Origin: Trichosphaerium sp. ATCC 40318
Taxonomy: Eukaryota; Protista; Tubulinea
Assembly (NCBI GenBank): GCA_038496445.1
Contig: JALMLS010000256.1
Coordinates: 62,001 to 126,000 of the forward strand
Reading direction: 5' to 3'
Length of the DNA: 64,000 nt
Shown piece after piece: positions 36,556-62,182 of this stretch. The position numbers and the translations under genes were made by a program. The notes beneath the pieces were generated by a model that did no database searches, was not told where the DNA came from, and saw only the letters and a list, made by a program, of their open reading frames with translations. Within the stretch, counting starts at the first letter, position 1, and each line of letters begins with the position of its first letter.

Positions 36556-39472
36556 ATGACGTGTTTTAAAAAAAAAGAGACGTTGTGTTACGGTTGTTGT
36601 TTTGGCAGTGCATTTCGTTCCGAGTACAAGAAACTTCAAATAACTTTTTTTTTTAATATCTTTTCAAAGAATTTTAGCTATCGGTTCTGTTCACGTGCTC
36701 TGATCAGTTTATTTTATTGGCTCCAAATTACCGTATTTTCTTAGTATGTTAATCTTATTTATTCATTGTAGGTATTGGTAAATCATCGATTGCAAAAAAA
36801 TTCGGACATGAGTTTAGAAACAATCATAAAACTGCATTTGTTTATCACTTGAACTGGGTTAATATACACAAATCCAAGAGATTTCAAAAGCTATTAAGAA
36901 TGAATGTATCAAATATCAGTAGGATTGAGGATTACGTAAGTGCTATGAAAGGTCTACAACAGCCTTGGTTACTTATCGTATCAAACATGACTGATGGACC
37001 TGAATTATCAAGTTCTTTTTGGAAAGATTTCGTTGATATTAAAAACCCTCATCCAGGTACGAATAGAAAAAATATTGATTACTATCACAAGCATTTATAT
37101 ATATACAGGAATGGTTGTTGTCACATGCCAAGCTTTGACAAAAAGACCAAATAAAATTACAAAGGAAGCAAGGTACGAACCAATTAATTTATTTTTCACG
37201 TGATTTTTTTTTTCTCCATAACAAGAACGAGACTAATAACAACAATAAGAAAGAGTAAGAGCATGAAAGACCACCTACAAATACCTGCTAACATAAAGAA
37301 ATCAATGAAATCGCAGTATTGTTCTTTCATTGATGGCTTTACTGCTGGCGATGTGAAGAATTTCTTGAAAGCTCAAGGTTCGCCTAAAGAAATAACAGAA
37401 TGCTAACTTAACTGTCTTCAGGTGTTAAGTGTATGCTTAAATCAGAAATTGTACAATTAATCAACTCAACACAAGGACATCCACAACTTTTATCTCATCT
37501 CGCAACAATACTTAAGCCATATAAACTTGATGATGTTCAAAGTAGTGCGGCAATTGATAAGATATATACCGAGTTTGGTATGCAATGTCTTGTACTTTTC
37601 ACGTTAAACTAATGCCTTACCTACAGCCACATACGCTCGGGAAAACTCTAATACAATAGAACCTCAAATAACTCTGCTTAGTGAGGCTATAGGTGTACTT
37701 CCAAAAACAGAACAAAGTAAGAGAGTAAACCTTTCCTTAGTTATTTTTGGAATAACTTTTATTTATAGATGCACATCTAGCTGCTCAGTTTTCTGTGGAG
37801 CTTGTAAATACCATTTTTCCTCCTAATGAAGCAATTGGTATACTGAGTACTCTATTACAAGGAATGGAGAAAGACGGCGAGAGATTAATGGGTCATATGA
37901 TTTTACATGAATTTTCAAAAGCTGCATTGAACTCGGGAGACCCTAAAAGATTACACGAAGCGTATAAGCTCAGTTTTCAAGCTTCTCAAAGTCTTGCGAA
38001 ACATAAAGCTAATCTTACTTGGGAATTATTTTCATACGGGACGCTTACAGGATACATTTTGTTTCAAATGAATGAAATTGTTCAAGGAAGAAAAGGTCTT
38101 GATAGATCGTATAGAGAAGGCGCTCTTAGAATGCTTCAACATCCTACAAGAAGGGAAATATTTGAGTATATAAGATGGCATTCTCTATCTGCTGGTTGTG
38201 AACTTAAGTTAATTTATAATGGAGAGCTGTATGAAGAGGGAATGGCAACAAGTACGAAGCAGGTTTTTTCCAATTTTCTTCTTGTTTTTTTCTGTTTCCA
38301 TTTGGTGTTGTTCTTACACTATGTAGAAATACTTGAGATGCTTGATAAAGGATTAAATATGTCATATGATTTCTTTAAGACGAAACATACTACGTTATTC
38401 TGTATTACTAGTATCATGAGTGCATTAGCAGTTAAAAAGTTTCTTAATAATGACGCTATGGCAATACAAGCACTGAAGGAGGTGGTACCAATTTTAGACT
38501 CTCTGGAAGAAAAAAAATTGGTGTCTACTGCGCTTTTGAATCTGTCTTTGATTTACTGGGATAGTGGACAGTACAAAAAGTGTGAAAATACTTTAGTTAT
38601 GGTACGGTAAAGGTTGCTTATTTTTTTCAAGAAAAAAATCTAAAACGTATTCTCATTTTATTCTAACTCTTAGTTATAGTTATCAGAAAGAATTGAGGGA
38701 GGAGAAAAAGATTTATTACAACCAGATATTGAGGCATCAGCGATATGGCTAGCAGCTGTTACATACTTTGTGTACGACGGTCTCTTTTTTTTTTCTTTTT
38801 TTTTGATGGCGGATCTGACCTTTCTTTCTTCTCAGCCACTCACTTGAAAGCGGTGAAGTTTTAAAAATAAACAAGCTCAAAGCTGTAAAAGGAGCACACG
38901 TGGCTGCGAGACAATTGTTTGATTCACGAAGGTTATCAAGTGGTCATCCGCCATCACATGTTAAGTCAGTTATTAACATGGCTCAACTTATCCTACTTGA
39001 ATACATTGACACTAACGATAAAAAAATAATCGGGGAATTACTTGATCATTTTGATAAGTATGTAAAGCGTACAAAGTATTCTATTAGAGACTCTGGTGAA
39101 GATACCAGTGCGAACTATGCGGCTCAAATTGGAGATGCAACTGATATTCATGAAGATGAAGATTTGGCAGACCCTACTCGTACTTCTGATATTGTATCAT
39201 ATGTTAAGAACCTTAGTATAGATTTAAGGACCGCATTAAACAGTCCTAAAGGTGTACGTAACCTCATATAATCCTGCTTGAATCGAAAGCAACATTTTCT
39301 TATTTTTCCTTTTTCTGCTTTTTTTCTTATTTATCAAGAAACAACATTGGTGGGCACTTACTTATTTTCTTCTTTGTAGGTATTTAAAGTAAGAGAATTA
39401 AGCTTAGAATTATCTACAAAGACACGAAAAATGTTTGACTACATAGTCCCTGTTAACGATATAGAAATGTGA
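36556..39472 (+). CDS. STAND-type P-loop NTPase plus TPR-like helical repeats (NLR-like)
   Basis: IGKSSIAKKFGHEF (Walker A), PWLLIVSN (Walker B position), TQGHPQLLSHLA (GxP motif), TPR-like TALLNLSLIYWDSGQYKKC; start uncertain. Confidence 0.6.
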
Positions 39473-39831
39473 TATTTTTTTCGAAAAAAGAATATTAACT
39501 AAACAATCCAATGACTACATCAATACTTATACGGTCCTAAATCCAACACATGTATTTATAAACCCATTTTTCTTCCTACAAGCAGAATATATTATTTATT
39601 TTTTTGAGTCAACACTAACGCTAGGTGGACGAGGCAAACATGTACTTACACTTCAGTATAGTTCTCAAGAAAAAAAGTTTGCTCTTCAATGCATTGCAAC
39701 TCGCTTTTCGCGAAGTTGAGGTTAAATAATAAGCTTTGTACTAGCTTGTAACATCATGATATGTTCCAAATCTACAATTCTCATTTCAGTGAAAAGAAGT
39801 CACTTTGTGTATTTTATTTACAACAGAACAA

Positions 39832-41102
39832 ATGCAACAACTGTTCAACCGCATCCTAAACGCGTTTTCTACTACCCAATCCCAAGATAACGCTGTTGCA
39901 ACATCACAGCAGAGTAATAAGAAGGCTATAAGATACCCTAAGCTAATTATATTCAATTTATACCAAACCCTCATAAAGATACAAAACGACTTTCTAGATG
40001 AGAAATCAGTGCGTTCCTTTGCTTGCGTATGCAAAAAAGCATACAACGAGTATTTCAAGACAAGACTGTTCAGAGTACGCTGAAAAGGATCACTACAATA
40101 TAAATAGCGTTGTTTTTGACCGTTTGGTGGTAGGAGGTTATAAGTCGCGATCCTGCGATACAGAATATACCAACACACGACGGAATAAAGGGATTACGCA
40201 CTTTTACAGCGTCCAAGAAGGGTATTCTATACTGCCAAGGACCTAATAGCTCAATTGTTTCAATTGACTTGAATGACCTCACAAAAGCACCAGTGATCGT
40301 TTGTTTATTGGATTTACAGAAATGGGAATCTATCATACAAATTTATTTAACATGTGATCAGAAAAGCATCGTTGTTATGGCAAGCGTTATAAATATCGTC
40401 AACCTCGAGTCCGGAGATATCGAAACTCTGGTGCCTGTGATGGATGGAATCTCGTTAATACCTTCTGATCTTGAGCTAAGGATGCTACCGCATCCGAAGA
40501 AGAGCGAAGTACTTCTGTTGTTACGTCGAGATGGTATATTTGAGTTCAATATGGAGTCGAAGATTGTAAAGAAAATAATTCCTCTAGACTTGGATGTATC
40601 TGACTATGTTGACTTTGTCCTTCCTCTCAGTGATTCGAACAAAGCTGATTTTGCGTTTACAGTGATAGTAGGTGGAGGTGGATGCTATTTAGCAGAGTTA
40701 TACACGGTTAAACTTGAAGAAAATGAATGTAAACTTATTCCTAGTATTTTCTCAAATTATGAACACGAGTCCCTATGTAGGGTTTGTAATAGTACGAACA
40801 GTCATGGAGAAGAAACTATTATATTCAAACATGCATTGTATGTATATTTTTTAGTTGTTTAAACAATGAAGTTCCATTTTAAGTTAATCTTGTTGTTTAG
40901 ATATTGGACAGAATATAATGTTGATACTGGTAAATTCCGGCCTTTCAATTTGAAAGATAGCAGGTTCTCTGAAGAGCCCAGATTGGTAGAATGGAATGGT
41001 CGTGTATACGGGTTTACTTATTGTGGTTCTGTAGCATTAATGCCTAATATTGATCCTTATGTAACAGATAAACCAGAGACCTACCCGCCTTACATGCGGT
41101 AA
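39832..41102 (+). CDS. F-box-like protein with beta-strand-rich (propeller-like) C-terminus
   Basis: IQNDFLDEKSVRSFACVCKKAY; LVVGGY, VIVGGGG, RLVEWNGRVYGF segments. Confidence 0.5.
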
Positions 41103-41329
41103 ATAAACACTATAATTATGTACCTAGAACATGTTGCTTATTCAAACTCTGCTTGTCTTTTTTCCAGTAGGGTATTTTGTATTAGGTTGCTGAGCGTCAG
41201 TAAGGAACTAGGCCACTCACTGTGTTGTGCCTTTCTACTACAAGAAAAAAGGAAGAAATGTTGTATGTGTACACAGTGGATTTATATGTTTTTTTCTCTT
41301 TATTTTTGGAACATATGTGAATGTAACAG

Positions 41330-44300
41330 AAGCTTCACCTTTCCAGAACAGCAAATAGTCAAGAATTACAGAATCAGGTGCAATCGAATACTGTTTGCTT
41401 TCTAATAGTCTACTTTTCTGTTCTGTTTTAAAGTGAAGCAATTGTTTTTTTTGAAATTGGAACCATCATAATGCAACGATTTGAAACAGAGCTATCTTTT
41501 CTGATAACCTGAAAACCGAATAAAGTAGATGTCTCTTTAATAACTCCTTCAATCTCAAACATCTCAATACGCACTGTATCGCCTATTGAAGAAAAGTTAC
41601 AAAAAAAAGATGAGAGAAAACTTACTGAGTTTAGTTTCGCCAACATAGTCAATAATAAATTCTGAAACATCATGTAAAGATACATGTCTTAGACTCTTAT
41701 AATTGAAGCCTCTGTTTCCACTTGCCATTGACTTTAAGTCTTCATACCATACCATGTATTGAGCGTGGTTGACATGGCCAAAAACATCAAGGTCCCATGT
41801 GTTAACTTTGTAGTCCTTAAAAACAACATCTATTTCAGGTTAGGTTATTTCACTTATTCTGTGGTGTCTAATATAGGGTTTTTAACAAATACATTGCCTT
41901 TGATTGAATAGGTTTGTGGAATTTCTATCACTTAAAACAAGAAGAAAACAAGAAATTCTTTCAAGTGTTTTACCTTTTGCTTTTTTTCTGAAGTTAGGAA
42001 TCAATTTCATTATATCTGGCGTTAGCATAAATTCATGAGAAGGCAGAGGATTATTCTTTCTTATCATTTCATAGTGACTTCGTGTTGCCTTGTCCAAAGG
42101 TATAGCATGTAATTTTGGATGCCTTGAAAATTTTTTGAGAAACTAAAACTAACAACTATCTTCAAGATGCTCCTCATAGAACAATCTGTAATACCTTGAA
42201 ACCATAACAAGGGTTGATCTACATTCAGCTATTATATCTTTTTCTGATGGCATCACTCCTTGTAATGCTATAGCAAGTGTACTTTAGAACAATATTAATC
42301 CAACTTTTGCTACAAGTTACCTTGTTTGTATTCGTTTGTGATTAAGCTTACTGTCACGTAAGAAGAATTCCCTACATATTGTATACTACTTAAAACATGC
42401 TTTAAATCGTGAATATCCTTTGGGTAATTCAATATCTAACAACAATCAGAAATCACCTTAACAAATCGAAAAAATATTATAATACAAATGTCACGTGAAG
42501 ATTGAAGTTACCCTGTGGACGTACTCTCTCCAACGAATTATTGTACTAAAAAAGCCAAATTTTCTGTCGATTACGACTTACGAACAAGTGTTGTCAAAAA
42601 GCAGCAAAATGTTGTTTATGAATGAAGATGTGGAACATTTCAAGCGTTTGGTTGGACTGAACAAGACTGTGAATATCGAAGGACACAATAGGCAACAACA
42701 ACAACAATGGCGAGTAGCAATCAAAACATTGGTGATACTGGTAAGTATTTAGGCGTAAGCCCATACTGGTATAAAATTGTTGTGGATGCAGCTCCACAAT
42801 TCCGTGAGTTTTCAAAAACAAAAGAGAAGGCAACCAAGCGGGATTTTGTTAATTTCCTGGCGGTTAACCTTGATCCCGACAAGAAAATTAAAGGGACACA
42901 GTTGTGGGATAAGATTATGGCGCAATCCAGAGATACTATACTGGAGATTTACGAACAGGTCGCTACAGATGTAGAGTTGAAAAAGTATCTGGACTGGATT
43001 AAAATAGGTACTACCTTTTTAAATATGTCCGGAAGGCATATGGAAAACCTCCAAAACATTTTTAAGCCTCAAACACCGAAAAAGAACTTTGTTTCAAAAA
43101 TAGTTTCATTGGTATCTCCGTCACGTGATAAAAATTTTCAAAATAATCAGGATGTACCTTCTTTTGATGACTCTGAAGTTGACGCTGCTTTAGCCGGAGT
43201 TTCCTCCGAAGACCTTACAATTCGCGAGGATCTGGATCTTTCTAGTCCAGAGCAGCTCCAACTGGTACAGAACCTAATTCAAGCGACAGAGGACTACCAG
43301 CGACAAACAGAAGTACTCAAACGGCAACTGGACGTGGTTCAGAAAGAAAATCAAGCTCTGAATGACGAGCTTAAACAACAACAAGCCTCAAAGGAACCGG
43401 AAGGCACGTGGACAAAAACCAAAAAAGATTTACAAATTTTGGAAAAAGCAAGAGAAATTTGTCTTTCTTATGCCTCTCGTGTAGGCTTGCAGAACTCTGC
43501 GACCACGGAGGTTACGGCTACACCGCCACGCCCTACACAAGGCATTCAGTCGGTACCAGACCAGGGTACAGCGACAGGAACAGGGCTACCTAACCCTTAT
43601 CAGTACCAAAACCAACAAGGTACTCCAAAAACAGATACTTTTTCTTTTGACAATGTTACAGCGCCGTACAATGGACTGATGGCAAAAACAACGCCTACAC
43701 CATTGGTTCAGGGTATTATGCCCTCAGATTTCACTGTGGTAAGTGCCGAAGAGGCAGCAGCACTTCGAAAAACTTTCACCAACTCTCCTTTGATTTGTGG
43801 AATTACGCGTTTTGGTATAAAAAACCCAGTTTATTTTCCAGAGTTTGTACAGTCTTTTAATGTCTTTGATAGCTCACCAGTGCTTTCACACAGGCCCTCC
43901 AAAGCCATTCCGATAACCAGCGACGCAGATCTGATTATGCGTCTTCGTTTGATCCTCCGCCAAGCAAACGTAGATATGACCAACAGTCTTATTTCGAAGA
44001 CTATGTTAGAGCACTATCAAAGATACCACAACCAAGTGCTAGCCCTATTGTCAATGTATACGCAGCAGCAGGTACTCATTTTTGATCGTGCAGTAAGAAA
44101 ATTCTGGGAACGATCTGATTCTCCATACTTGGTTCCTCAGTTGTACTTTAACATGTACCTAGGGCCGGTTCAACAACCCAACAATCAACCTAGAGGTCCA
44201 CCAAGGCCAAGACGGCAACAGCAACCTAGACGCCCTCCACTCACCAAGCAAGAAGTGATCGATGCTCAAGTTGGTAGCAGAAACAACCCTTGGAACATCA

Positions 44301-47300
44301 CCAATGATCACCTGGCCTGTATTCAAGCGAATTCATTGAGTAGTGATAACTGTCGCTTCTCCAGACGCCCAAATGGATGTTACCTAAAGCATGTGTGCTT
44401 CAGTTGTGGTATAAAAGAACATTGGCATAATACCTGTCCTAATCAAAGAAGGTGACAATCAAAATTAACGTTGCCTGTACTCAATAAACTTTCGTTCTCT
44501 TTCTCAGCAGCGTTAATGTCTAAAAAAGTTAAATTATGGTCCTCATTAATGAGTAAAGATAAGGATTGGGTGTGGTTGTCGGGGTGGATTACAATAGGTA
44601 TCTCTTTAGTTCCAGTAGGTACAGTGATTAAAGAAACAAGAGTAGAAAATTCTAAAACTTGCAATCAATGGAGCACTCTAGTAAGCAAAGATATAAACTT
44701 AGAGTTGTCTAGAGGCTGGATTTACAAGGCTAACAAGGTACGAAAATGTAACAAAATAGCAGCAATCCCAAAATATGATGACAAAGGACAATTCCGAAAT
44801 AAGATACGTAAAGTGGTTTGTTTAAATCTTCCTATTGGGACTTCAGTTAATGATCTATCTGAAACACCACAAAGTTTTACATTAACAGCTCTAAAAGAAG
44901 CTTTAACCTTTATTAGAAACAACAGTAATAGTGTCTTATGGTTAGGTAAAGAGGATATGTTTTCAGCATATCGAATGGTACCAGTAAACCCTAAACATCA
45001 TGATTTGATAGCGTTTGAATGGAAAGGAATATTATATAATATTATATAAGGATGGTAGGCTTCCCTTTGAATGGAATAGAGCACCAGAAGTATTTATTAG
45101 GTTGATGGCCATGATCTCTAGGTACTTGCGGTCAATAGGCTTTAGCTTTCATGTTGTTTACTTCGACGATTGGTTGATTATTGGAAGATCTAAAGAAGAA
45201 GTTAAAGTTGCAATGAAAATGCTAATGAAAATACTAGAAAATTTAGGTTTTGAAATGTCTAAAGATAAGTGTCAAGGTCCAACACAGTGCCTCACCTTTC
45301 TGGGCTATGAGATCAACACAGCCAAGCGTACGATTACTTTAACAGAGCGTAAAAGGACAAAAATTAAAAAATTGGTGGTTTGGTTTCTTCAGCAGAAGTC
45401 AGCGAAGTTAAGGAAGTGGCAACAACTTACTGGTACATTAAACTTTGCGGCTCAGGTTGTATATGGGGGACATACATACCTAAGAAGGATATATGACGGC
45501 TTAAGACACTATAGCAATAATGAACAGTGGGTACACAAGACAACAGCAATGCAAAAAGACTTAAAGTGGTGGCATGATATGATGGACCTATGGAATGGTA
45601 AGGCAATTTTACTATGTCCGTTACCATTATCAAAAGGTTTGTTTCAAACAGACGCTTCAAACATAGCAGCAGGCGCGTTTTTAAATGGTTCATGGCTTAT
45701 CCATGTCTTTACAAAAGAAGAAAAAAAATGGCATATCAATGTTAAGGAGATGTATGCGGTGTGGATGGCAATAAAAGAATGGAAACACTTATTTGCCAAT
45801 AAACTTATCAACAATTTATTAGTGGATAATACAGGAGTAGTTGCATCAGTCAACAGACTGGTAATGCGCAATTCCAGAGCTATGAAGATGATATACGATC
45901 TGCATAAATGGTCGGCAGCATTCGGATTCCGGCTTACTGCAACTTGGATTCCCTCAGAAGAAAATACCCTTGCTGACGCTTTAAGTAGACTGCAAACACA
46001 ACAATTTTATACCAAAGCAAATCAATTAGGCTTTTTTAATGTAACAGGACGTTTTATTAAATAAATTTATTTAGAATTCTTAACAGAAGTACAAAACAAA
46101 CGTATTAGAATCCTGCGAGAGGCCTATCCCAGAAGTACAAGCAATAATAGAATGTCAGCTATAAAAGCAGTAGTTATTGCACTGCTCAAGCTCAATATTC
46201 CACAAAGTCAATGGATGCCTTTGAGCTCTCAACACATGCAACTGGTAGTAGCATTGTGGGCAAAAGAATCAGCAGAGGAAGAGGGGTTAAAGCCTGACAC
46301 TATCCGCGTATACTTCTCACATTGGGCATGGCTTTCGAAAAGATTAGGTTATGCTGACCCAAGAGAAAATTGTGTATTATATCATGATATGTTAAGAGGC
46401 CTTAGAAGGAAGGTAGGAGATAGAGTAGACAGAAAACGACCTATGACAGCAGTGATGTTATTGAACATAAGAAAAAAAGTGGATTTGCGACAAAACAAGG
46501 ATCTGGTTTATTGGACAGCAGCATTAATGGCATTTTGGGGAATGCTAAGGATAGGTAACTTGGTTCCTCGTAAAGTAGCAGAATTTAGTGTCGATAGACA
46601 CGTATCAAGGTCCAACATAGAGTTTGACGGTGATACTTGGTGGTTTACACTTAGACAAACAAAAACAATTCGATTCCGTGAGAGAAAACACGTAATACCG
46701 TTTCTGGATATGGAAGGTCACCCTTTATGCCCTACAACAGCGATAAACAGACTAATTAAACAGGTCAAACCCATACAAGGAAAATCCCTGTTTAGACACA
46801 AGAACAACGGAAGATGGTCACAAATAACATACTCTAAATTTGTAAAATGGACCAAACTAATGGTTTCAAAGATGGTAAATAATACTAAAAAATATGCTGG
46901 ACACTCATACAGGCGTGGCGGAGCAACACATGCAGCTGCAGCAGGAGTTCCTAATGAATGGATAAAATATATTGGCGATTGGAGCTCAGATGCATATCAA
47001 ATATACATTGTAAAAAACAAAGAAGACAGATTAATAGCACCAAAATTAATGTTTCAATGGCTTAAACATGGCCTTGATCATACAGATCGCGCTGGGGAGG
47101 ATGGTCAACCTCAACCATGGCTAGAGGATTGACGTGGGTAGAATAAATCCGCTCGTGTGGCTACGCTAGAGCCACCAAAGACTGAGCGTCTTTCCTCCCA
47201 AGCGCGTCTCCCTTATATTGACAACGTTGTCCAATCTAATGAATGAAGATGTGGAACATTTCAAGCGTTTGGTTGGACTGAACAAGACTGTCAATATCGA

Positions 47301-47882
47301 AGGACACAATAGGCAACAACAACAACAATGGCGAGTAGCAATCAAAACATCCCCTCACCCTCCCTAAAATCCTTTTCTTTTTCTTGTAAAAATTTTTTCT
47401 TTATTTTTCCTTCAAACACATTTGCAATTCACACGAGTGTTCTTAAATGTAGAATAAATCCGCTCGTGTGGCTACGCTAGAGCCACCAAAGACTGAGCGT
47501 CTTTCCTCCCAAGCGCGTCTCCCTTATATTGACAACGTTGTCCAATCTAAAACGATCAAAATCAAGAAAAAAAAAGGAAAAAAAAAAAAGGTTTGTAGTT
47601 GTTAAACTGTACCTTGATGTGATGAAACTTGGTAAAAGTTAAAATACCATCATCTTTTTCACCTATATAACGTATAAGCCGTTCTCCTGAGTCGTGAGTA
47701 TTATCTCGGCCTCTCTAGTGTTAATAAGCTTAAAAAGTATATGGTTAACTGTTTTGACATACGTCTTCGATTGTAAGCAACGCTGAAAGGCGATACTTTT
47801 GTTTTTTGGTTGTAACACTATGTGTGGCATCTATAAAGTTTGGATATATGCCTATGATGCCGTATCCCTCTTTAAAGCTCAT
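41330..47882 (-). CDS. Double hot-dog acyl-CoA/ACP thioesterase-like gene; one intron (~42436-47612) hosts the retroelement
   Basis: Exons on both sides of the element: MSFKEGYG..RLSALLTIED|RGRDN..HHIK || ILNYPKDIHDL..IIAECRSTLVMVSR|HPKLHAIPLD..DRNSTNLFNQ..KETSTLFGFQVIRKD; 3' end approximate. Confidence 0.55.
42618..42729 (+). repeat. Split direct repeat A1 (112 bp), contains the gag ATG
   Basis: Matches 47239-47350 except one G/C difference. Confidence 0.95.
42707..44455 (+). CDS. gag: Gag-like protein of YR retrotransposon
   Basis: 582-aa intronless ORF with coiled coil and C-terminal CCCH+CCHC zinc fingers (CIQANS..CRF..CYLKHVCFSCGIKEHWHNTCP). Confidence 0.85.
   Translation: MASSNQNIGDTGKYLGVSPYWYKIVVDAAPQFREFSKTKEKATKRDFVNFLAVNLDPDKKIKGTQLWDKIMAQSRDTILEIYEQVATDVELKKYLDWIKIGTTFLNMSGRHMENLQNIFKPQTPKKNFVSKIVSLVSPSRDKNFQNNQDVPSFDDSEVDAALAGVSSEDLTIREDLDLSSPEQLQLVQNLIQATEDYQRQTEVLKRQLDVVQKENQALNDELKQQQASKEPEGTWTKTKKDLQILEKAREICLSYASRVGLQNSATTEVTATPPRPTQGIQSVPDQGTATGTGLPNPYQYQNQQGTPKTDTFSFDNVTAPYNGLMAKTTPTPLVQGIMPSDFTVVSAEEAAALRKTFTNSPLICGITRFGIKNPVYFPEFVQSFNVFDSSPVLSHRPSKAIPITSDADLIMRLRLILRQANVDMTNSLISKTMLEHYQRYHNQVLALLSMYTQQQVLIFDRAVRKFWERSDSPYLVPQLYFNMYLGPVQQPNNQPRGPPRPRRQQQPRRPPLTKQEVIDAQVGSRNNPWNITNDHLACIQANSLSSDNCRFSRRPNGCYLKHVCFSCGIKEHWHNTCPNQRR
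44456..46064 (+). pseudogene. pol: Reverse transcriptase-RNase H (pol), frameshifted by a 10-bp duplication at 45028-45047
   Basis: KEDMFSAYRMVPV, LPF(E)W, YFDDWL, LTFLGYEIN, TDAS, HINVKE, VDN, NTLADALSR; AATATTATAT duplicated at the frame break. Confidence 0.9.
46065..47132 (+). CDS. Tyrosine recombinase of YR retrotransposon (first ATG 46152; coding probably begins upstream)
   Basis: AFWGMLRIGNL (catalytic R), KT, HPLCPT, GHSYRRGGAT (HxxR), GDWSSDAYQIYI (W, Y). Confidence 0.92.
   Translation: MYLEFLTEVQNKRIRILREAYPRSTSNNRMSAIKAVVIALLKLNIPQSQWMPLSSQHMQLVVALWAKESAEEEGLKPDTIRVYFSHWAWLSKRLGYADPRENCVLYHDMLRGLRRKVGDRVDRKRPMTAVMLLNIRKKVDLRQNKDLVYWTAALMAFWGMLRIGNLVPRKVAEFSVDRHVSRSNIEFDGDTWWFTLRQTKTIRFRERKHVIPFLDMEGHPLCPTTAINRLIKQVKPIQGKSLFRHKNNGRWSQITYSKFVKWTKLMVSKMVNNTKKYAGHSYRRGGATHAAAAGVPNEWIKYIGDWSSDAYQIYIVKNKEDRLIAPKLMFQWLKHGLDHTDRAGEDGQPQPWLED
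47138..47239 (+). repeat. Split direct repeat B1 (102 bp)
   Basis: Identical to 47449-47550. Confidence 0.95.
47239..47350 (+). repeat. Split direct repeat A2
   Basis: Copy of 42618-42729, directly abutting B1. Confidence 0.95.
47449..47550 (+). repeat. Split direct repeat B2 (3' terminus of the element)
   Basis: Identical to B1. Confidence 0.95.
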
Positions 47883-48181
47883 TATTTTATAGCCACCTAC
47901 ACGAGACTTAAAAATTGATGACTTAAGCCAACATCTTTTCTGAAAGACAACTCGCTATCAAAGCACGTTGCTACTGTTTTTGTAGATACGGCCAGATTTC
48001 ATACAGTTTAGCGTTTAAATAGTAACTGGAACACGTGTGTTGTGGCTTAATTCAGTCAACACTTAGTGCAGTAATTTTACAATTGTCAAGCGTTAACCAA
48101 GTATAGTAACAATACTAGTGTAACAACGTCGCCTAACTCAGCGTTCTAGTATTACTTGGTGAACATCACAAACTTGATTTG

Positions 48182-50242
48182 ATGGCAACAGTTAAAACAA
48201 GTAAACTACGTACGAAAACTCTTAATCTGAGCGTCATTCTCAATAATAACGTGTTTTAAGCGCCAAATGAGCTGGTAATACAACAAAACGCTTCAATTGC
48301 TTCTAATTTACCATATGACGTTCTCTGGATAATATCAAAGCGCTTGATATCACCAAAAGATCAAAAGAAAACACTTACATTCCGTTTGGTTAACAAACAT
48401 TGGAACAAAGTTATTATATCTCGTGTGGAGTGCCTAGAGCTTTTTTGGAGCGATTCAAACTCTACCAGTGCATTACGTAATCTTGCATCTTTCCCACGTG
48501 TTTCACGTTTTTCAATAATATCACATGACATACTATTGAAGGAGTCATCAATACGTGATATACTTTCAATGATTTCGCCGTCCAAACTTGTTCATCTATC
48601 TGTGGAGCACTGTTCGAGCATAACTCCGAATGTGTACAATGTATTGACTCAGTATACAAGGTTAGAGAGCTTCTATATAACTAGCACTATAAAGGACTTC
48701 AATTGGATTAAACAAATGACTCGCTTGAAGAGTTTGACTTGTCAGATGCCACGGAAAGTAAATTACTCGGATCTTGTTCAGTTGACACATCTTGAGACAT
48801 TAGACAGCTCAATTTGTGGTGCTGAATCAAGTTGTATGACTAACTTGAAAGCATTGGTAACAGATTCGTTCAATACTGGTCGTATTATAAGACATGAGGA
48901 GCTTGAACATTTGACTTTAAGAAAGTATAATAATCTTGAGATGTTCTCGATGTCGCTGTTTCCAAAGATTAAGACTTTCTCATATAAGTTTGAAGTAATG
49001 ATACGTGGAGAGAGATATTCTTGTTTACCAATGAGATATAGCTTACAGTTCCTCGATTTTCCAACCATTCAGGTAAGTAGATGTGACTCTTTTTAATGTT
49101 ATTTTTCTCATAATTTTCTTCTTAAATGCAAACTTCAACTGCTTTTTTGTTTCATTCATTGCGCCTAGAAGTCAATTCTTAATAAGACTAAGCAGTGATA
49201 AATACTTTGTTTGATACTGTTGATTAACTTCTTGTTTACAGAGATTACAACTTTACTATGATGGCTTCGCTACACCTCATCTTGAAGATTTCCAAGACTG
49301 TAAGCAGTTAGATAGTCTTTATCTTGATGCTTCAAGGATGGGTCTTTCGCACAGTGACCTTATTACCAGTGTTATTGATATTTCTGGACTACACCTGCTC
49401 ACAACTTTGAGGACACTTCGAATAAAATACAGGTACCTCGTTAACATGGACAGGGTTTTTAGTCACATGGATAAAATGACTTTCTTGGACACGGTTGGTA
49501 CGACTTTGTATCTTGCTTCATTCAAGAGCTAGCTCTAGTTCCAATGTTCTTGGATTTCTTATGAAATGTTTGTGCTAACTATTTTTTTTTTTCAAGTATG
49601 CAACGCTGAGCTGCCAGCAATATGTTTACAGTCATTAACTCAATTAACCTCACTTGAATTAACAATTACAAAAGATAATCCTCAACTAGAATTAATTCTT
49701 CAATACACAAAGTTGACACGACTAGTTGTTACAGTACGTCTTCAGAAAAAAAGATGACTAAAAAACCACCAATTTGAATTCAGCTCCTTTACATTTTCTA
49801 GGCAAAGGGGCACAGTAATGAGCTTGTAGAAGGAATATGTGGGAAATTAACAAGATTACGAGAGTTGGGTATTATAAAGTCACATATTTCAGATGAAGGA
49901 CTTCAAATGTATGTGTTACATCCTTTTTTTTTTGGATTTTGATGGTTTTTCTTCTTCCATTTTTCTTCTCTTTATGATATGTGCGTTGATTTTCTTATAT
50001 TATCATGCAGGCTTTCTGCATTACCGCAGCTTCAAAAACTTTGCTTATGGAGAAATACAACAGTTACCAATGAAGGTATATCGGAATTCAAAAAACAAAA
50101 CATGTATGTATCTGTGGATATTTCTCAATCATTTTCAAACGATGATTTATAAACTGTGTTACTTAAACTGAACACTGCTCCATTTTCAGAACCCAGTGCT
50201 GTTCAGTCACTATTCTCGCTTCACATAGAGCAATCCAAGTAA
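48182..50242 (+). CDS. F-box plus leucine-rich repeat protein, multi-exon
   Basis: SNLPYDVLWIISKRL..TFRLVNKHW; LxxLxxLxL repeats (MTRLKSLTC, LTHLETLD, LTQLTSLEL); end approximate. Confidence 0.75.
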
Positions 50243-60458: not shown

Positions 60459-61595
60459 CTACTTTGTTATTTGATGTGCACCGTCTAATGCTTTGATTCC
60501 CTCAGCTGTTATGAACTCACAATAACATAAGGTAATAGTGTGTACGCCAGCCAGAGCTTTTAAACCTTCATCTGTTACTTTTGTATCTGTTAAATTAATA
60601 GCATGTACACCAGCCAATGCCTTTATGCCATCATCTGTTACTTTACAATAGCACAAGTTGATACTGTGTACACCTGCCAATGCTTTTAAGCCTTCATCCG
60701 TTACATTTGTAAGTGATAAGTAAATAGCATGTGCACCAGCCAATGCCTTTATACCCTGGTCTGTTATCAGTTTACAACAATCCAAATCAATAGTATGTAC
60801 TCCTGACAATGCTTTCAAACCTTCATCTGTTACACTGCACTCTGATAGGGAAATCTCGTATACACCAGCTAATGCCTTTATCCCTTCATCTGATATCATT
60901 TCACAACAATCTAGACCAATGGTGTGTACACCAGCCAGAGCTTTTAAACCTTCATCTGTTATATTGCACCCTGAAAGGTAAATTTCATGCACACCAGCCA
61001 ATGTCTTTATCCCTTCATCTGTTATCATTTCACAATACTCCAACGTGATGGTGTGTACACCTGCCAACGCCTTCAAACCTTCATCTGTTATATTACACCC
61101 TGATAGGTGAATTTCATGCACACCAGCCAATGTCTTTATTCCTTCATCTGTTATCATTGTACAATCATCTAAACGAACAGTGTGCACACCAGTCAATGCC
61201 TTCAAACCTTTGTCTGTCACATTTGTATTTGATAAATAAATCTCATGTACACCAGCCAAAGCCTCCACGCCCTTGTCTGTTATCAACTTACTAAGGTTTA
61301 GATAGATAATTTGTACACCAGAAAGCAAAAGCAAGTGACTGTCAAGTGCTGGAAAACTAGAGAACGAAATTGTGGTGTTCTTCAGTAAACGACTACCAGA
61401 AAGCATCTGAACTTCATCTTCACTTATAATACTGATACGACCGTATCCAACGTGGTTGTGAACAATATCTCGCAAAAGATGGCACGTTTGGGCTGTACGA
61501 AGTGTGTACGTCCCTTGTTTGAGAATATGGACTATTAATTCGATTGGTAGAGCAAATAGGTGCTGGTTTGTGTGTTTTTCGTATCCTTCTTCCAT
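60459..61595 (-). CDS. Intronless F-box plus LRR protein (13 short 21/22-aa repeats)
   Basis: HLFALPIELIVHIL..TAQTCHLLR; repeat (I/V)TDEG(L/I)KALAGVHxIxLxxC. Confidence 0.9.
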   Translation of the reverse strand: MEEGYEKHTNQHLFALPIELIVHILKQGTYTLRTAQTCHLLRDIVHNHVGYGRISIISEDEVQMLSGSRLLKNTTISFSSFPALDSHLLLLSGVQIIYLNLSKLITDKGVEALAGVHEIYLSNTNVTDKGLKALTGVHTVRLDDCTMITDEGIKTLAGVHEIHLSGCNITDEGLKALAGVHTITLEYCEMITDEGIKTLAGVHEIYLSGCNITDEGLKALAGVHTIGLDCCEMISDEGIKALAGVYEISLSECSVTDEGLKALSGVHTIDLDCCKLITDQGIKALAGAHAIYLSLTNVTDEGLKALAGVHSINLCYCKVTDDGIKALAGVHAINLTDTKVTDEGLKALAGVHTITLCYCEFITAEGIKALDGAHQITK

Positions 61596-62182
61596 TTTGG
61601 TTTAATTAGAGCGATTAGTTCTTACTTTTGTTTATTGTTGTTGGGGATAGCCTTACCACTATTCAGAGGAAGTAAAGCAAGTGTAGGTTAAGTTGCCTTG
61701 CTTAATACATGTCTCTGCAGTTATTCAACATGGCAGTTCTGTATGAGGTTTTGCTTCAAAACAGAATCAAGATGGATATAGGTTATCAATAGATCATGGT
61801 TTAAAACAAGGCTTTGAAACGGGGTATGTAAAAAGGAATGTCACAAATCAATTTGAGATTGAGGGTATCCTGAAGTTCACAATGTGTTTCTCTTTCACTC
61901 CATCACCAGCACAAGTACAAAGTGATAAAAAGAATCAATTCGACTCTTATGTTGAAGCTAATTCCTTTCTGAGTAAAATAAATACATCTAACTGCACTAA
62001 CAGGCCATTACAAAGTTCAATACAAAATTCTCCACAAGCCAAAAATAGTGTATTGTTGACGAATGTGTCTAGAGTTGTTGTGATAAGGCTTGATAAACAA
62101 TACAAAGACCAACCTCAAAGAAAACGTCTACGTAAGCTAGTTGACTTTTTTTTTTTATTTTGGGATATTTTTATAAGCTTAT

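Follow-up and report, generated by a model that had tools for sequence, protein, structure and literature searches.

Layout and classification of the element

The window analysed here is a 64,000-nucleotide stretch of Trichosphaerium sp. ATCC 40318 (contig JALMLS010000256.1, positions 62,001 to 126,000), consisting of AT-rich eukaryotic DNA with 33-40% GC and short introns. It carries on its plus strand a tyrosine recombinase (YR) retrotransposon of 4.9 kb (42618-47550; all coordinates are those of the window), laid out as A1-gag-pol-YR-B1A2-B2. A contig from a likely cDNA run lacked four introns of the gag open reading frame (ORF) of this element. The sequence features further suggest that Gag-Pol is probably made by readthrough of a leaky gag stop, and that a YR ORF without a suitable start codon is probably reached by a splice.

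The split direct repeat A1 (42618-42729, 112 nt) contains the gag start codon at 42707 and shows 99% identity with A2 (47239-47350). Repeat B1 (47138-47239), with an AATAAA at 47142, is 100% identical to B2 (47449-47550), which is located 98 nt from A2. This near-identity of the repeats points to a recent insertion, and thus to a young element. On the plus strand, gag (ORF1, 42707-44455) encodes 582 aa when unspliced, including a C-terminal zinc knuckle (zf-CCHC_2, E 0.011, below the cut-off), pol (44456-46064) encodes reverse transcriptase (RT; RVT_1, E 5.7e-12) and RNase H (RH), and the YR ORF occupies 46065-47132. In this copy, a tandem duplication of 10 bp (about 45028-45049) splits pol and offsets its N-terminal part (pol-N) against its C-terminal part (pol-C) by one base.

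An initial annotation of this DNA had proposed that a single donor at 42741, shortly behind the gag start, is spliced alternatively onto 44507 for Pol and onto 46074 or 46086 for YR. Its coordinates were all correct, namely the ATG at 42707, the phase-1 donor G/GTAAGT at 42741, the TGA at 44453-55, the TTAAC at 44465, the TAA at 46062-64, and the AGs at 44506-07, 46046-47 (regarded as a decoy), 46073-74 and 46085-86. Recomputation confirmed that the predicted joins to Pol and YR are in frame, and also that apart from the duplication a single frame is used, gag being in frame with pol-N and pol-C with YR. Its premise that the ORFs of such elements usually overlap or lie in different frames is weak for Ngaro elements, which are usually without ORF overlaps (available text of PMC3266345) and whose YR may occupy the same frame as RT-RH (available text of PMC3783388).

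Judged by the structural features given in PMC4157794, PMC8547959 and PMC13465315, the element is a Ngaro-type YR retrotransposon. It has split direct repeats in the order A1-ORFs-B1A2B2 with the internal repeats 3' of YR, a Ngaro trait according to the accessible parts of PMC8547959 and PMC4157794. RT and RNase H are encoded in ORF2, and both the HxxR and the catalytic tyrosine motifs of the recombinase were located. No methyltransferase follows RNase H, as the domain search gave no match to this domain and the last RH motif is followed by 24 aa up to the end of pol. A PAT-like identity, for which a methyltransferase is combined with split direct repeats (PMC4157794, in part), was rejected since the element has no room for such a domain. 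A DIRS1-like identity was rejected as well, since these elements have inverted terminal repeats and an internal complementary region (PMC3266345, in part), whereas the terminal repeats found here are direct.

Four introns inside the gag coding frame

Contigs from five sequencing runs (X1-X5), none of which is recorded as RNA, were compared with the window, without use of raw reads. The runs X1 and X3 had adaptor-like loose ends, presumably derived from a template-switch adaptor, and their contigs skipped GT..AG introns in host genes; five joints were on the plus strand and one on the minus strand, and the ends of pieces revealed a further minus-strand intron. Because of these ends and the skipped host introns, X1 and X3 are likely cDNA. 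X4 belongs to another study than X1 and was guessed to be DNA. No contig of the five runs covered the donor 42741 with its downstream sequence, 44507 or, except for one X2 piece described below, 46074/46086, and pol and YR lay outside the likely RNA contigs; the contigs thus speak neither for nor against the long junctions of the initial annotation.

All four joints in gag were found on one 553-nt X1 contig. This bears out the assumption of the initial annotation that the host splices the element, although the annotation had missed these short introns. Intron 1 (43404-43484, 81 nt, GC..AG) is in frame, and its joint was present in X1 with a short side of 29 nt and in X4 with a short side of 53 nt. 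Intron 2 (43620-43661, 42 nt, GT..AG) is also in frame. Intron 3 (43739-43872, 134 nt, GTAAGT..TAG) shifts the frame, with one differing letter in the contig 2 nt before the donor. Intron 4 (44072-44162, 91 nt, GT..AG) restores it, and an 8-nt overhang matching this junction made it the second intron supported by X4. Another X1 contig spanned 44248-44480 across the gag stop without any joint. The few single-letter differences between the contigs and the window suggest another copy or strain.

With the four introns removed (81, 42 and 134+91 nt), the frame was open to the same stop, yielding 466 aa on the assumption that the 5' part not covered by the contigs is unspliced. The 199-nt exon between introns 3 and 4 (43873-44071) can be read without a stop in two frames, that of gag and the one set by removal of intron 3. 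This second frame was open in only 120 of 20,000 synonymous shuffles of gag (0.007 in a repeat test), and it was the only one of five long off-frame runs with gag-like composition. In gag frame +2 (43375-44082) as a whole, there are three stop-free runs of 69-72 codons, one of which matches the observed exon; this count of runs of at least 64 codons was matched in 1 of 1500 shuffles.

The unspliced frame is coding too, because it is free of stops over 582 codons and because a likeness to unnamed clusters of eukaryotic proteins (0.96-0.97; a lead without an alignment) was found for residues 345-490, the part that is lost or put into another frame by splicing. The gag introns thus sit inside a coding ORF. 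The spliced Gag would lose this conserved core while retaining the N-terminal part and the zinc knuckle. No gag relative was found at E <=0.001 among 7998 candidates, nor among 151 other proteins compared, and a single-sequence fold of the core gave a pLDDT of 37.

The host introns seen (37717-48260) had GTACG donors in four of seven cases, T-rich acceptors and, where present, a branch motif about 11-14 nt upstream. An acceptor score was built from these seven T-rich host introns with a hand-set branch bonus and applied to 350 AGs. The gag acceptors used in RNA ranked 1, 2, 3 and 9, and the branch motif lay 11-14 nt upstream in six of the nine plus-strand RNA-seen acceptors that were scored. 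A donor matrix made from the same introns was not relied on, as in its ranking of 258 GTs the donor 43739, which is in use, came 27th and 42741 no higher than 46th. A fifth in-frame intron of 51 nt, from 42741 to 42791, was rejected with its acceptor at rank 95 of 350. A longer in-frame candidate, 42741-43178 (438 nt), has an acceptor of rank 8 of 350 and lies outside the contig coverage.

Several points weigh against the expression proposed for the element. None of the runs is registered as RNA, their depth was low (2.4-6.8), X4 was only guessed to be DNA, and introns 2 and 3 were seen on a single contig. The acceptor score was derived from just seven host introns, its branch bonus was chosen by hand once the branch data were known, and one host intron scored below zero when left out. 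The alternative frame of gag contains two more stop-free runs of at least 64 codons that are not exons, so the shuffle test overstates dual coding. In addition, degradation of RNAs that carry premature stops could favour an open isoform even if it is devoid of function.

It is conceivable that the gag introns reflect cryptic or host-imposed splicing which cripples the RNA and gives no useful protein, the other steps of expression being judged separately. They interrupt an ORF that is open when unspliced and take out the part of it that is conserved, and the acceptors used are no more than the AGs with the highest scores. The introns contain less T (0.33) than those of host genes (0.44), and other long off-frame open runs are present. 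We nevertheless consider this explanation rather unlikely, as the four joints lie on one contig and in combination maintain the frame, introns 3 and 4 are phase-complementary around an exon whose second frame seldom opens by chance, and the same sites were found in two studies.

A readthrough-like junction between gag and pol

The gag stop TGA is followed by CAATCA (44453-44461), which conforms to the leaky-stop context CARYYA. This context occurs after 17 of the 3662 stop triplets on the plus strand of the window, and it stimulates readthrough at UGA or UAG but much less at UAA (PMC4132726, in part). An 11-bp stem was predicted to start 8 nt past the stop (44464-44517, arms 44464-74 and 44507-17). 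No other stem in the element reaches this length, and a stem of at least 11 bp followed only 2 of 1500 sampled stops. Folding of short windows gave z values of -3.9 and -4.7, and 10 of the 11 pairs had a probability of 0.85-1.0 in contexts of 240 and 500 nt. The loop holds an AATAAA (44483-88) and a pyrimidine tract. Twenty open codons separate the gag stop from the first methionine of pol at 44516. According to the accessible text of PMC3159437, the benyvirus readthrough site consists of UAG-CAA-UUA with a 9-nt spacer and a 12-nt stem, and alphavirus sites have a spacer of 8-9 nt and a stem of 11-12 bp.

These features suggest that Gag-Pol is probably produced by readthrough of UGA-CAAUCA with the help of the stem, a better reading than a splice onto 44507. 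Some observations speak against readthrough. The z value of the stem was 0.03 in a 148-nt window, and no second copy was found, leaving the stem without covariation support. By C+T content, no pyrimidine tract in the element is stronger than the one in the loop, and readthrough leaves this tract unexplained. Moreover, the in-frame gag-UGA-pol junction of Tca2 gave no readthrough in yeast (PMC2194720, in part).

As for the scheme of the initial annotation, in which donor 42741 serves 44507 for Pol and 46074/46086 for YR, possibly combined with a choice of poly(A) sites at the AATAAA of the ORF ends in the manner of alternative last exons, the evidence was divided. Among 258 GTs, the donor 42741 indeed comes closest to the generic consensus, agreeing at 8 of 9 positions, and the identical GTAAGT is used at 43739; an equally good donor, on the other hand, arose in 754 of 2000 synonymous gag shuffles. 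In favour of the scheme, the nearest short-intron acceptor for this donor, 42791, ranks low as given above; against it, the donor also has the in-frame partner 43178. The candidate Pol acceptors CAG/CAG (44506-44510) lie in the 3' arm of the stem. The acceptor 44507 has the strongest pyrimidine tract and ranked second of 166 YAGs by pyrimidine content; by the host-trained score, in contrast, it was only 21st of 350 AGs (44510 was 17th), and its branch is about 40 nt upstream rather than near.

The branch point assigned by the initial annotation is the 5' arm of the stem and its acceptor lies in the 3' arm, hence both are accounted for by the readthrough anatomy. The introns required, of 1.8 and 3.3 kb, far exceed the 42-134 nt seen. 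An AATAAA adjoins each of the three stops (44483, 46060 and 47142), out of six in the element, and the X1 contig crossing the gag stop ends at 44480. This AATAAA pattern, noticed post hoc and with one copy including the stop itself, was kept as a lead to a possible poly(A) signal; in the host, the motif was present behind just 2 of 13 long ORFs, a set in which many ends are not those of real genes. Since one shared frame is a requirement of readthrough and not of splicing, the frame offers no argument for splicing, and since there are 28 phase-1 GTR sites between 42707 and 45029, the phase of the donor is weak evidence. With readthrough anatomy at the gag stop and other phase-compatible donors available, a single shared donor for Pol and YR was not supported, and the scheme in its full form appears unlikely.

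Pol and the start-less YR

Both halves of pol fitted one profile, made from 35 relatives picked among the 150 matches listed, at positions 2-154 and 161-491 of 520. The pol methionine at 44516 is 7 residues ahead of the start of this homology. In the closest relative among the matches listed (53-55% identity), 23 aa follow the last RH motif of pol, compared with 24 here, so that its pol and the present one end within one residue of each other, although the end in the relative could be a contig edge. Metagenome scans for other copies gave 20 pattern matches with this pol and 110 with P0004, and viral scans with two pairwise alignments gave 600 and 317; none was confirmed.

YR matched Phage_integrase (PF00589) with E 1.5e-5 at 25.3 bits, below the cut-off of 27.1, but reached 287 bits with a profile of its relatives (27 of the 28 chosen, one being dropped for lack of the motif). 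In the pol-C/YR read-through, the alignment starts with residue 351, which lies 17 residues ahead of the first methionine at 46152, and the conserved first helix begins at about 46101. This confirmed that YR has no ATG ahead of the helix. The pol stop TAA lies within an AATAAA and is followed by T-rich candidate acceptors at 46073-74 and 46085-86, both fitting YR in phase 1 (46060-46089). As proposed initially, a host-like in-frame acceptor stands directly behind the pol stop, since 46074 ranked fourth of 350 AGs and so falls within the range of the gag acceptors used in RNA; the upstream AG at 46047 ranked 7th and 46086 15th. By pyrimidine content alone, 46074 was only 35th of 166 YAGs. The pol stop had neither a CARYYA context nor a stem, and a structure behind it was rejected (z -0.11 and 0.58). 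The only piece found at the YR acceptors was a 37-nt X2 contig (46047-46083) with 7 mismatches, probably from another organism.

The start-less YR would probably be expressed by splicing a phase-1 donor onto 46074 or 46086. Phase-compatible donors include 42741, the used donors 43404 and 43620, 44072 after removal of intron 3, and 44619 beyond the leaky stop. The YR intron would be 1.5-3.3 kb, far longer than any seen here. A 25-nt inverted repeat with 92% complementarity was noticed between 42767-42791, just past donor 42741, and 45990-46014, just before the YR acceptors; it could bring both splice sites together and would then favour 42741 as the donor for YR.

Translation of Pol and YR from their own starts, Pol from the AUG at 44516 after reinitiation or from an internal promoter and YR from 46152 or a non-AUG codon, would agree with the position of the pol methionine ahead of the homology and has a parallel in the minor promoter at the gag-pol junction of Tca2 (PMC2194720, in part). 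We regard it as very unlikely, since the pol AUG has a weak context and is placed within the stem, and a start at 46152 would drop the conserved helix. Least probable of all is a formerly fused pol-YR ORF in which the TAA is damage in a broken copy or a second leaky stop: the two share a frame with zero spacer, this copy is already frameshifted in pol, and fused RT-RH-YR proteins of about 29% identity exist among the matches listed (P0007 and P0008), but those checked are automatic animal gene models, the pol of the closest relative listed ends almost where this one does, and UAA-A lacks readthrough context and stem.

Proposed expression of the element

We propose that the element is expressed from one promoter by four-intron splicing of gag, readthrough into pol and splicing to YR, a plan that in its entirety may be expected to hold or to fail about equally. 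The unspliced RNA would give the full Gag of 582 aa and serve as the genome. The quadruply spliced RNA would give the 466-aa Gag without a core, which is likely to be a regulator or an RNA-binding partner and not a shell protein. Gag-Pol would be made through the leaky UGA-CAAUCA, aided by the stem 8 nt downstream. YR would be made from an RNA in which a phase-1 gag donor, 42741 being one of at least four candidates, is joined to 46074 or 46086.

A more far-reaching version, possible but doubtful, would place three layers of recoding on one transcript. In the first, selected in-ORF introns and a dual-coded exon would switch Gag between a shell protein and a core-less regulator. In the second, a leaky stop like those of plant viruses would supply Gag-Pol, with the stem hiding a poly(A) signal and a splice acceptor such that its folding chooses among gag-only RNA, readthrough and splicing. 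The third would be the splice onto the start-less YR.

YR retrotransposons span protists to vertebrates, and this copy offers predictions on the expression of pol and YR that are testable at the level of single bases. The sequence evidence points to a retrotransposon gag that undergoes multiple splicing and yet keeps a coding frame in its unspliced form. A functional spliced product would be a Gag variant of a new kind, made by the element itself; should it have no function, the host spliceosome would be disarming a recently active element.

Insertion site and surroundings

In X3 and X5, repeat A was preceded by another flank whose 14-letter core is absent from the window, indicating that another insertion exists (compared at 42617 and 47239). 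This other flank ends in TTAA and the ends of the present copy show TA/TAA, which may reflect a short target preference. Diverged B-repeat contigs with other flanks were present in X1 (47155-47519, depth 29-35), so related subfamilies occur in that run.

The element apparently occupies intron 2 (47612 to 42436) of a minus-strand host gene at 47888-41400, to which it is antisense; the gene has a thioesterase motif (PF20791, E 7.7e-6) at 41600-41839. The host-gene exons 47888-47763 and 47714-47613 were seen in X3, while the join to 42435 is suggested by a paralogous X5 contig and the open frame. In one X3 contig of this gene, an intron of 66 nt is spliced out at the join to the end of B2, from where the contig continues antisense to B2 and A2 (47239-47612, minus strand); such a transcript is a possible source of silencing RNA. 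Farther away on the minus strand, 60459-61601 is one long ORF with tandem leucine-rich-type repeats.

Comparison with known systems

Introns within a coding ORF whose retention brings in no stop, called exitrons, have been described for cellular genes. The gag introns resemble them in being located within an ORF that is open when they are retained, and differ in belonging to a mobile retroelement and in including a frame-shifting pair. Introns of fungal Ngaro elements may be mentioned in the founding paper on these elements (Goodwin and Poulter 2004) and in other subscription papers.

A search of the openly accessible literature found neither splicing nor readthrough described as a means of expression for YR retrotransposons. 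The available text of PMC7192593 and PMC6681497 does not address it, and the accessible portions of the Ngaro literature searched contain no statement of how pol and YR are expressed. With Ngaro elements of the order DIRS, as described in parts of the papers on Cafeteria burkhardae (PMC8547959) and fungi (PMC3783388), the element shares the A1-ORFs-B1A2B2 repeats, the order gag/RT-RH/YR, the lack of a methyltransferase, the non-overlapping ORFs and a YR that may share the frame of pol. Unlike the Ngaro elements in these portions, it has four introns in an open gag frame with a dual-coding exon, as seen in the contigs, a gag/pol stop with CARYYA and a stem, and a 98-nt spacer separating A2 from B2.

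In the Ty1/Copia element EVD, which has a fused gag-pol ORF, functional Gag is translated from a spliced short gag RNA (PMC5580714, in part). Splicing at gag would likewise give a subgenomic RNA distinct from the genome RNA here, with early termination possible at 44483, but the four introns remove the conserved Gag core. The proposed route to YR resembles the subgenomic splicing of retroviruses, and the spliced pol mRNA of foamy virus is a precedent for Pol from a spliced RNA (PMC3196705, in part). Foamy virus Pol is a precursor of its own apart from Gag, whereas the junction found here looks built for readthrough. Tca2 of Candida albicans has the same gag-UGA-pol arrangement in one frame, and differs in being a long terminal repeat element whose junction alone showed no readthrough in yeast (PMC2194720, in part). 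In anatomy, the junction resembles the readthrough sites of tobamoviruses and benyviruses, where CARYYA follows the stop and benyviruses add a 3' stem, and of alphaviruses, as given in parts of PMC3159437 and PMC4132726; it shares with them the CARYYA context, the 8-nt spacer and the 11-bp stem, here a predicted one, and this stem falls within the distance of about 8-12 nt from the stop that marks programmed readthrough sites. In contrast to those viral sites, this putative site would operate on the nuclear, spliced RNA of a retrotransposon, and it carries an AAUAAA and a pyrimidine tract in its loop.

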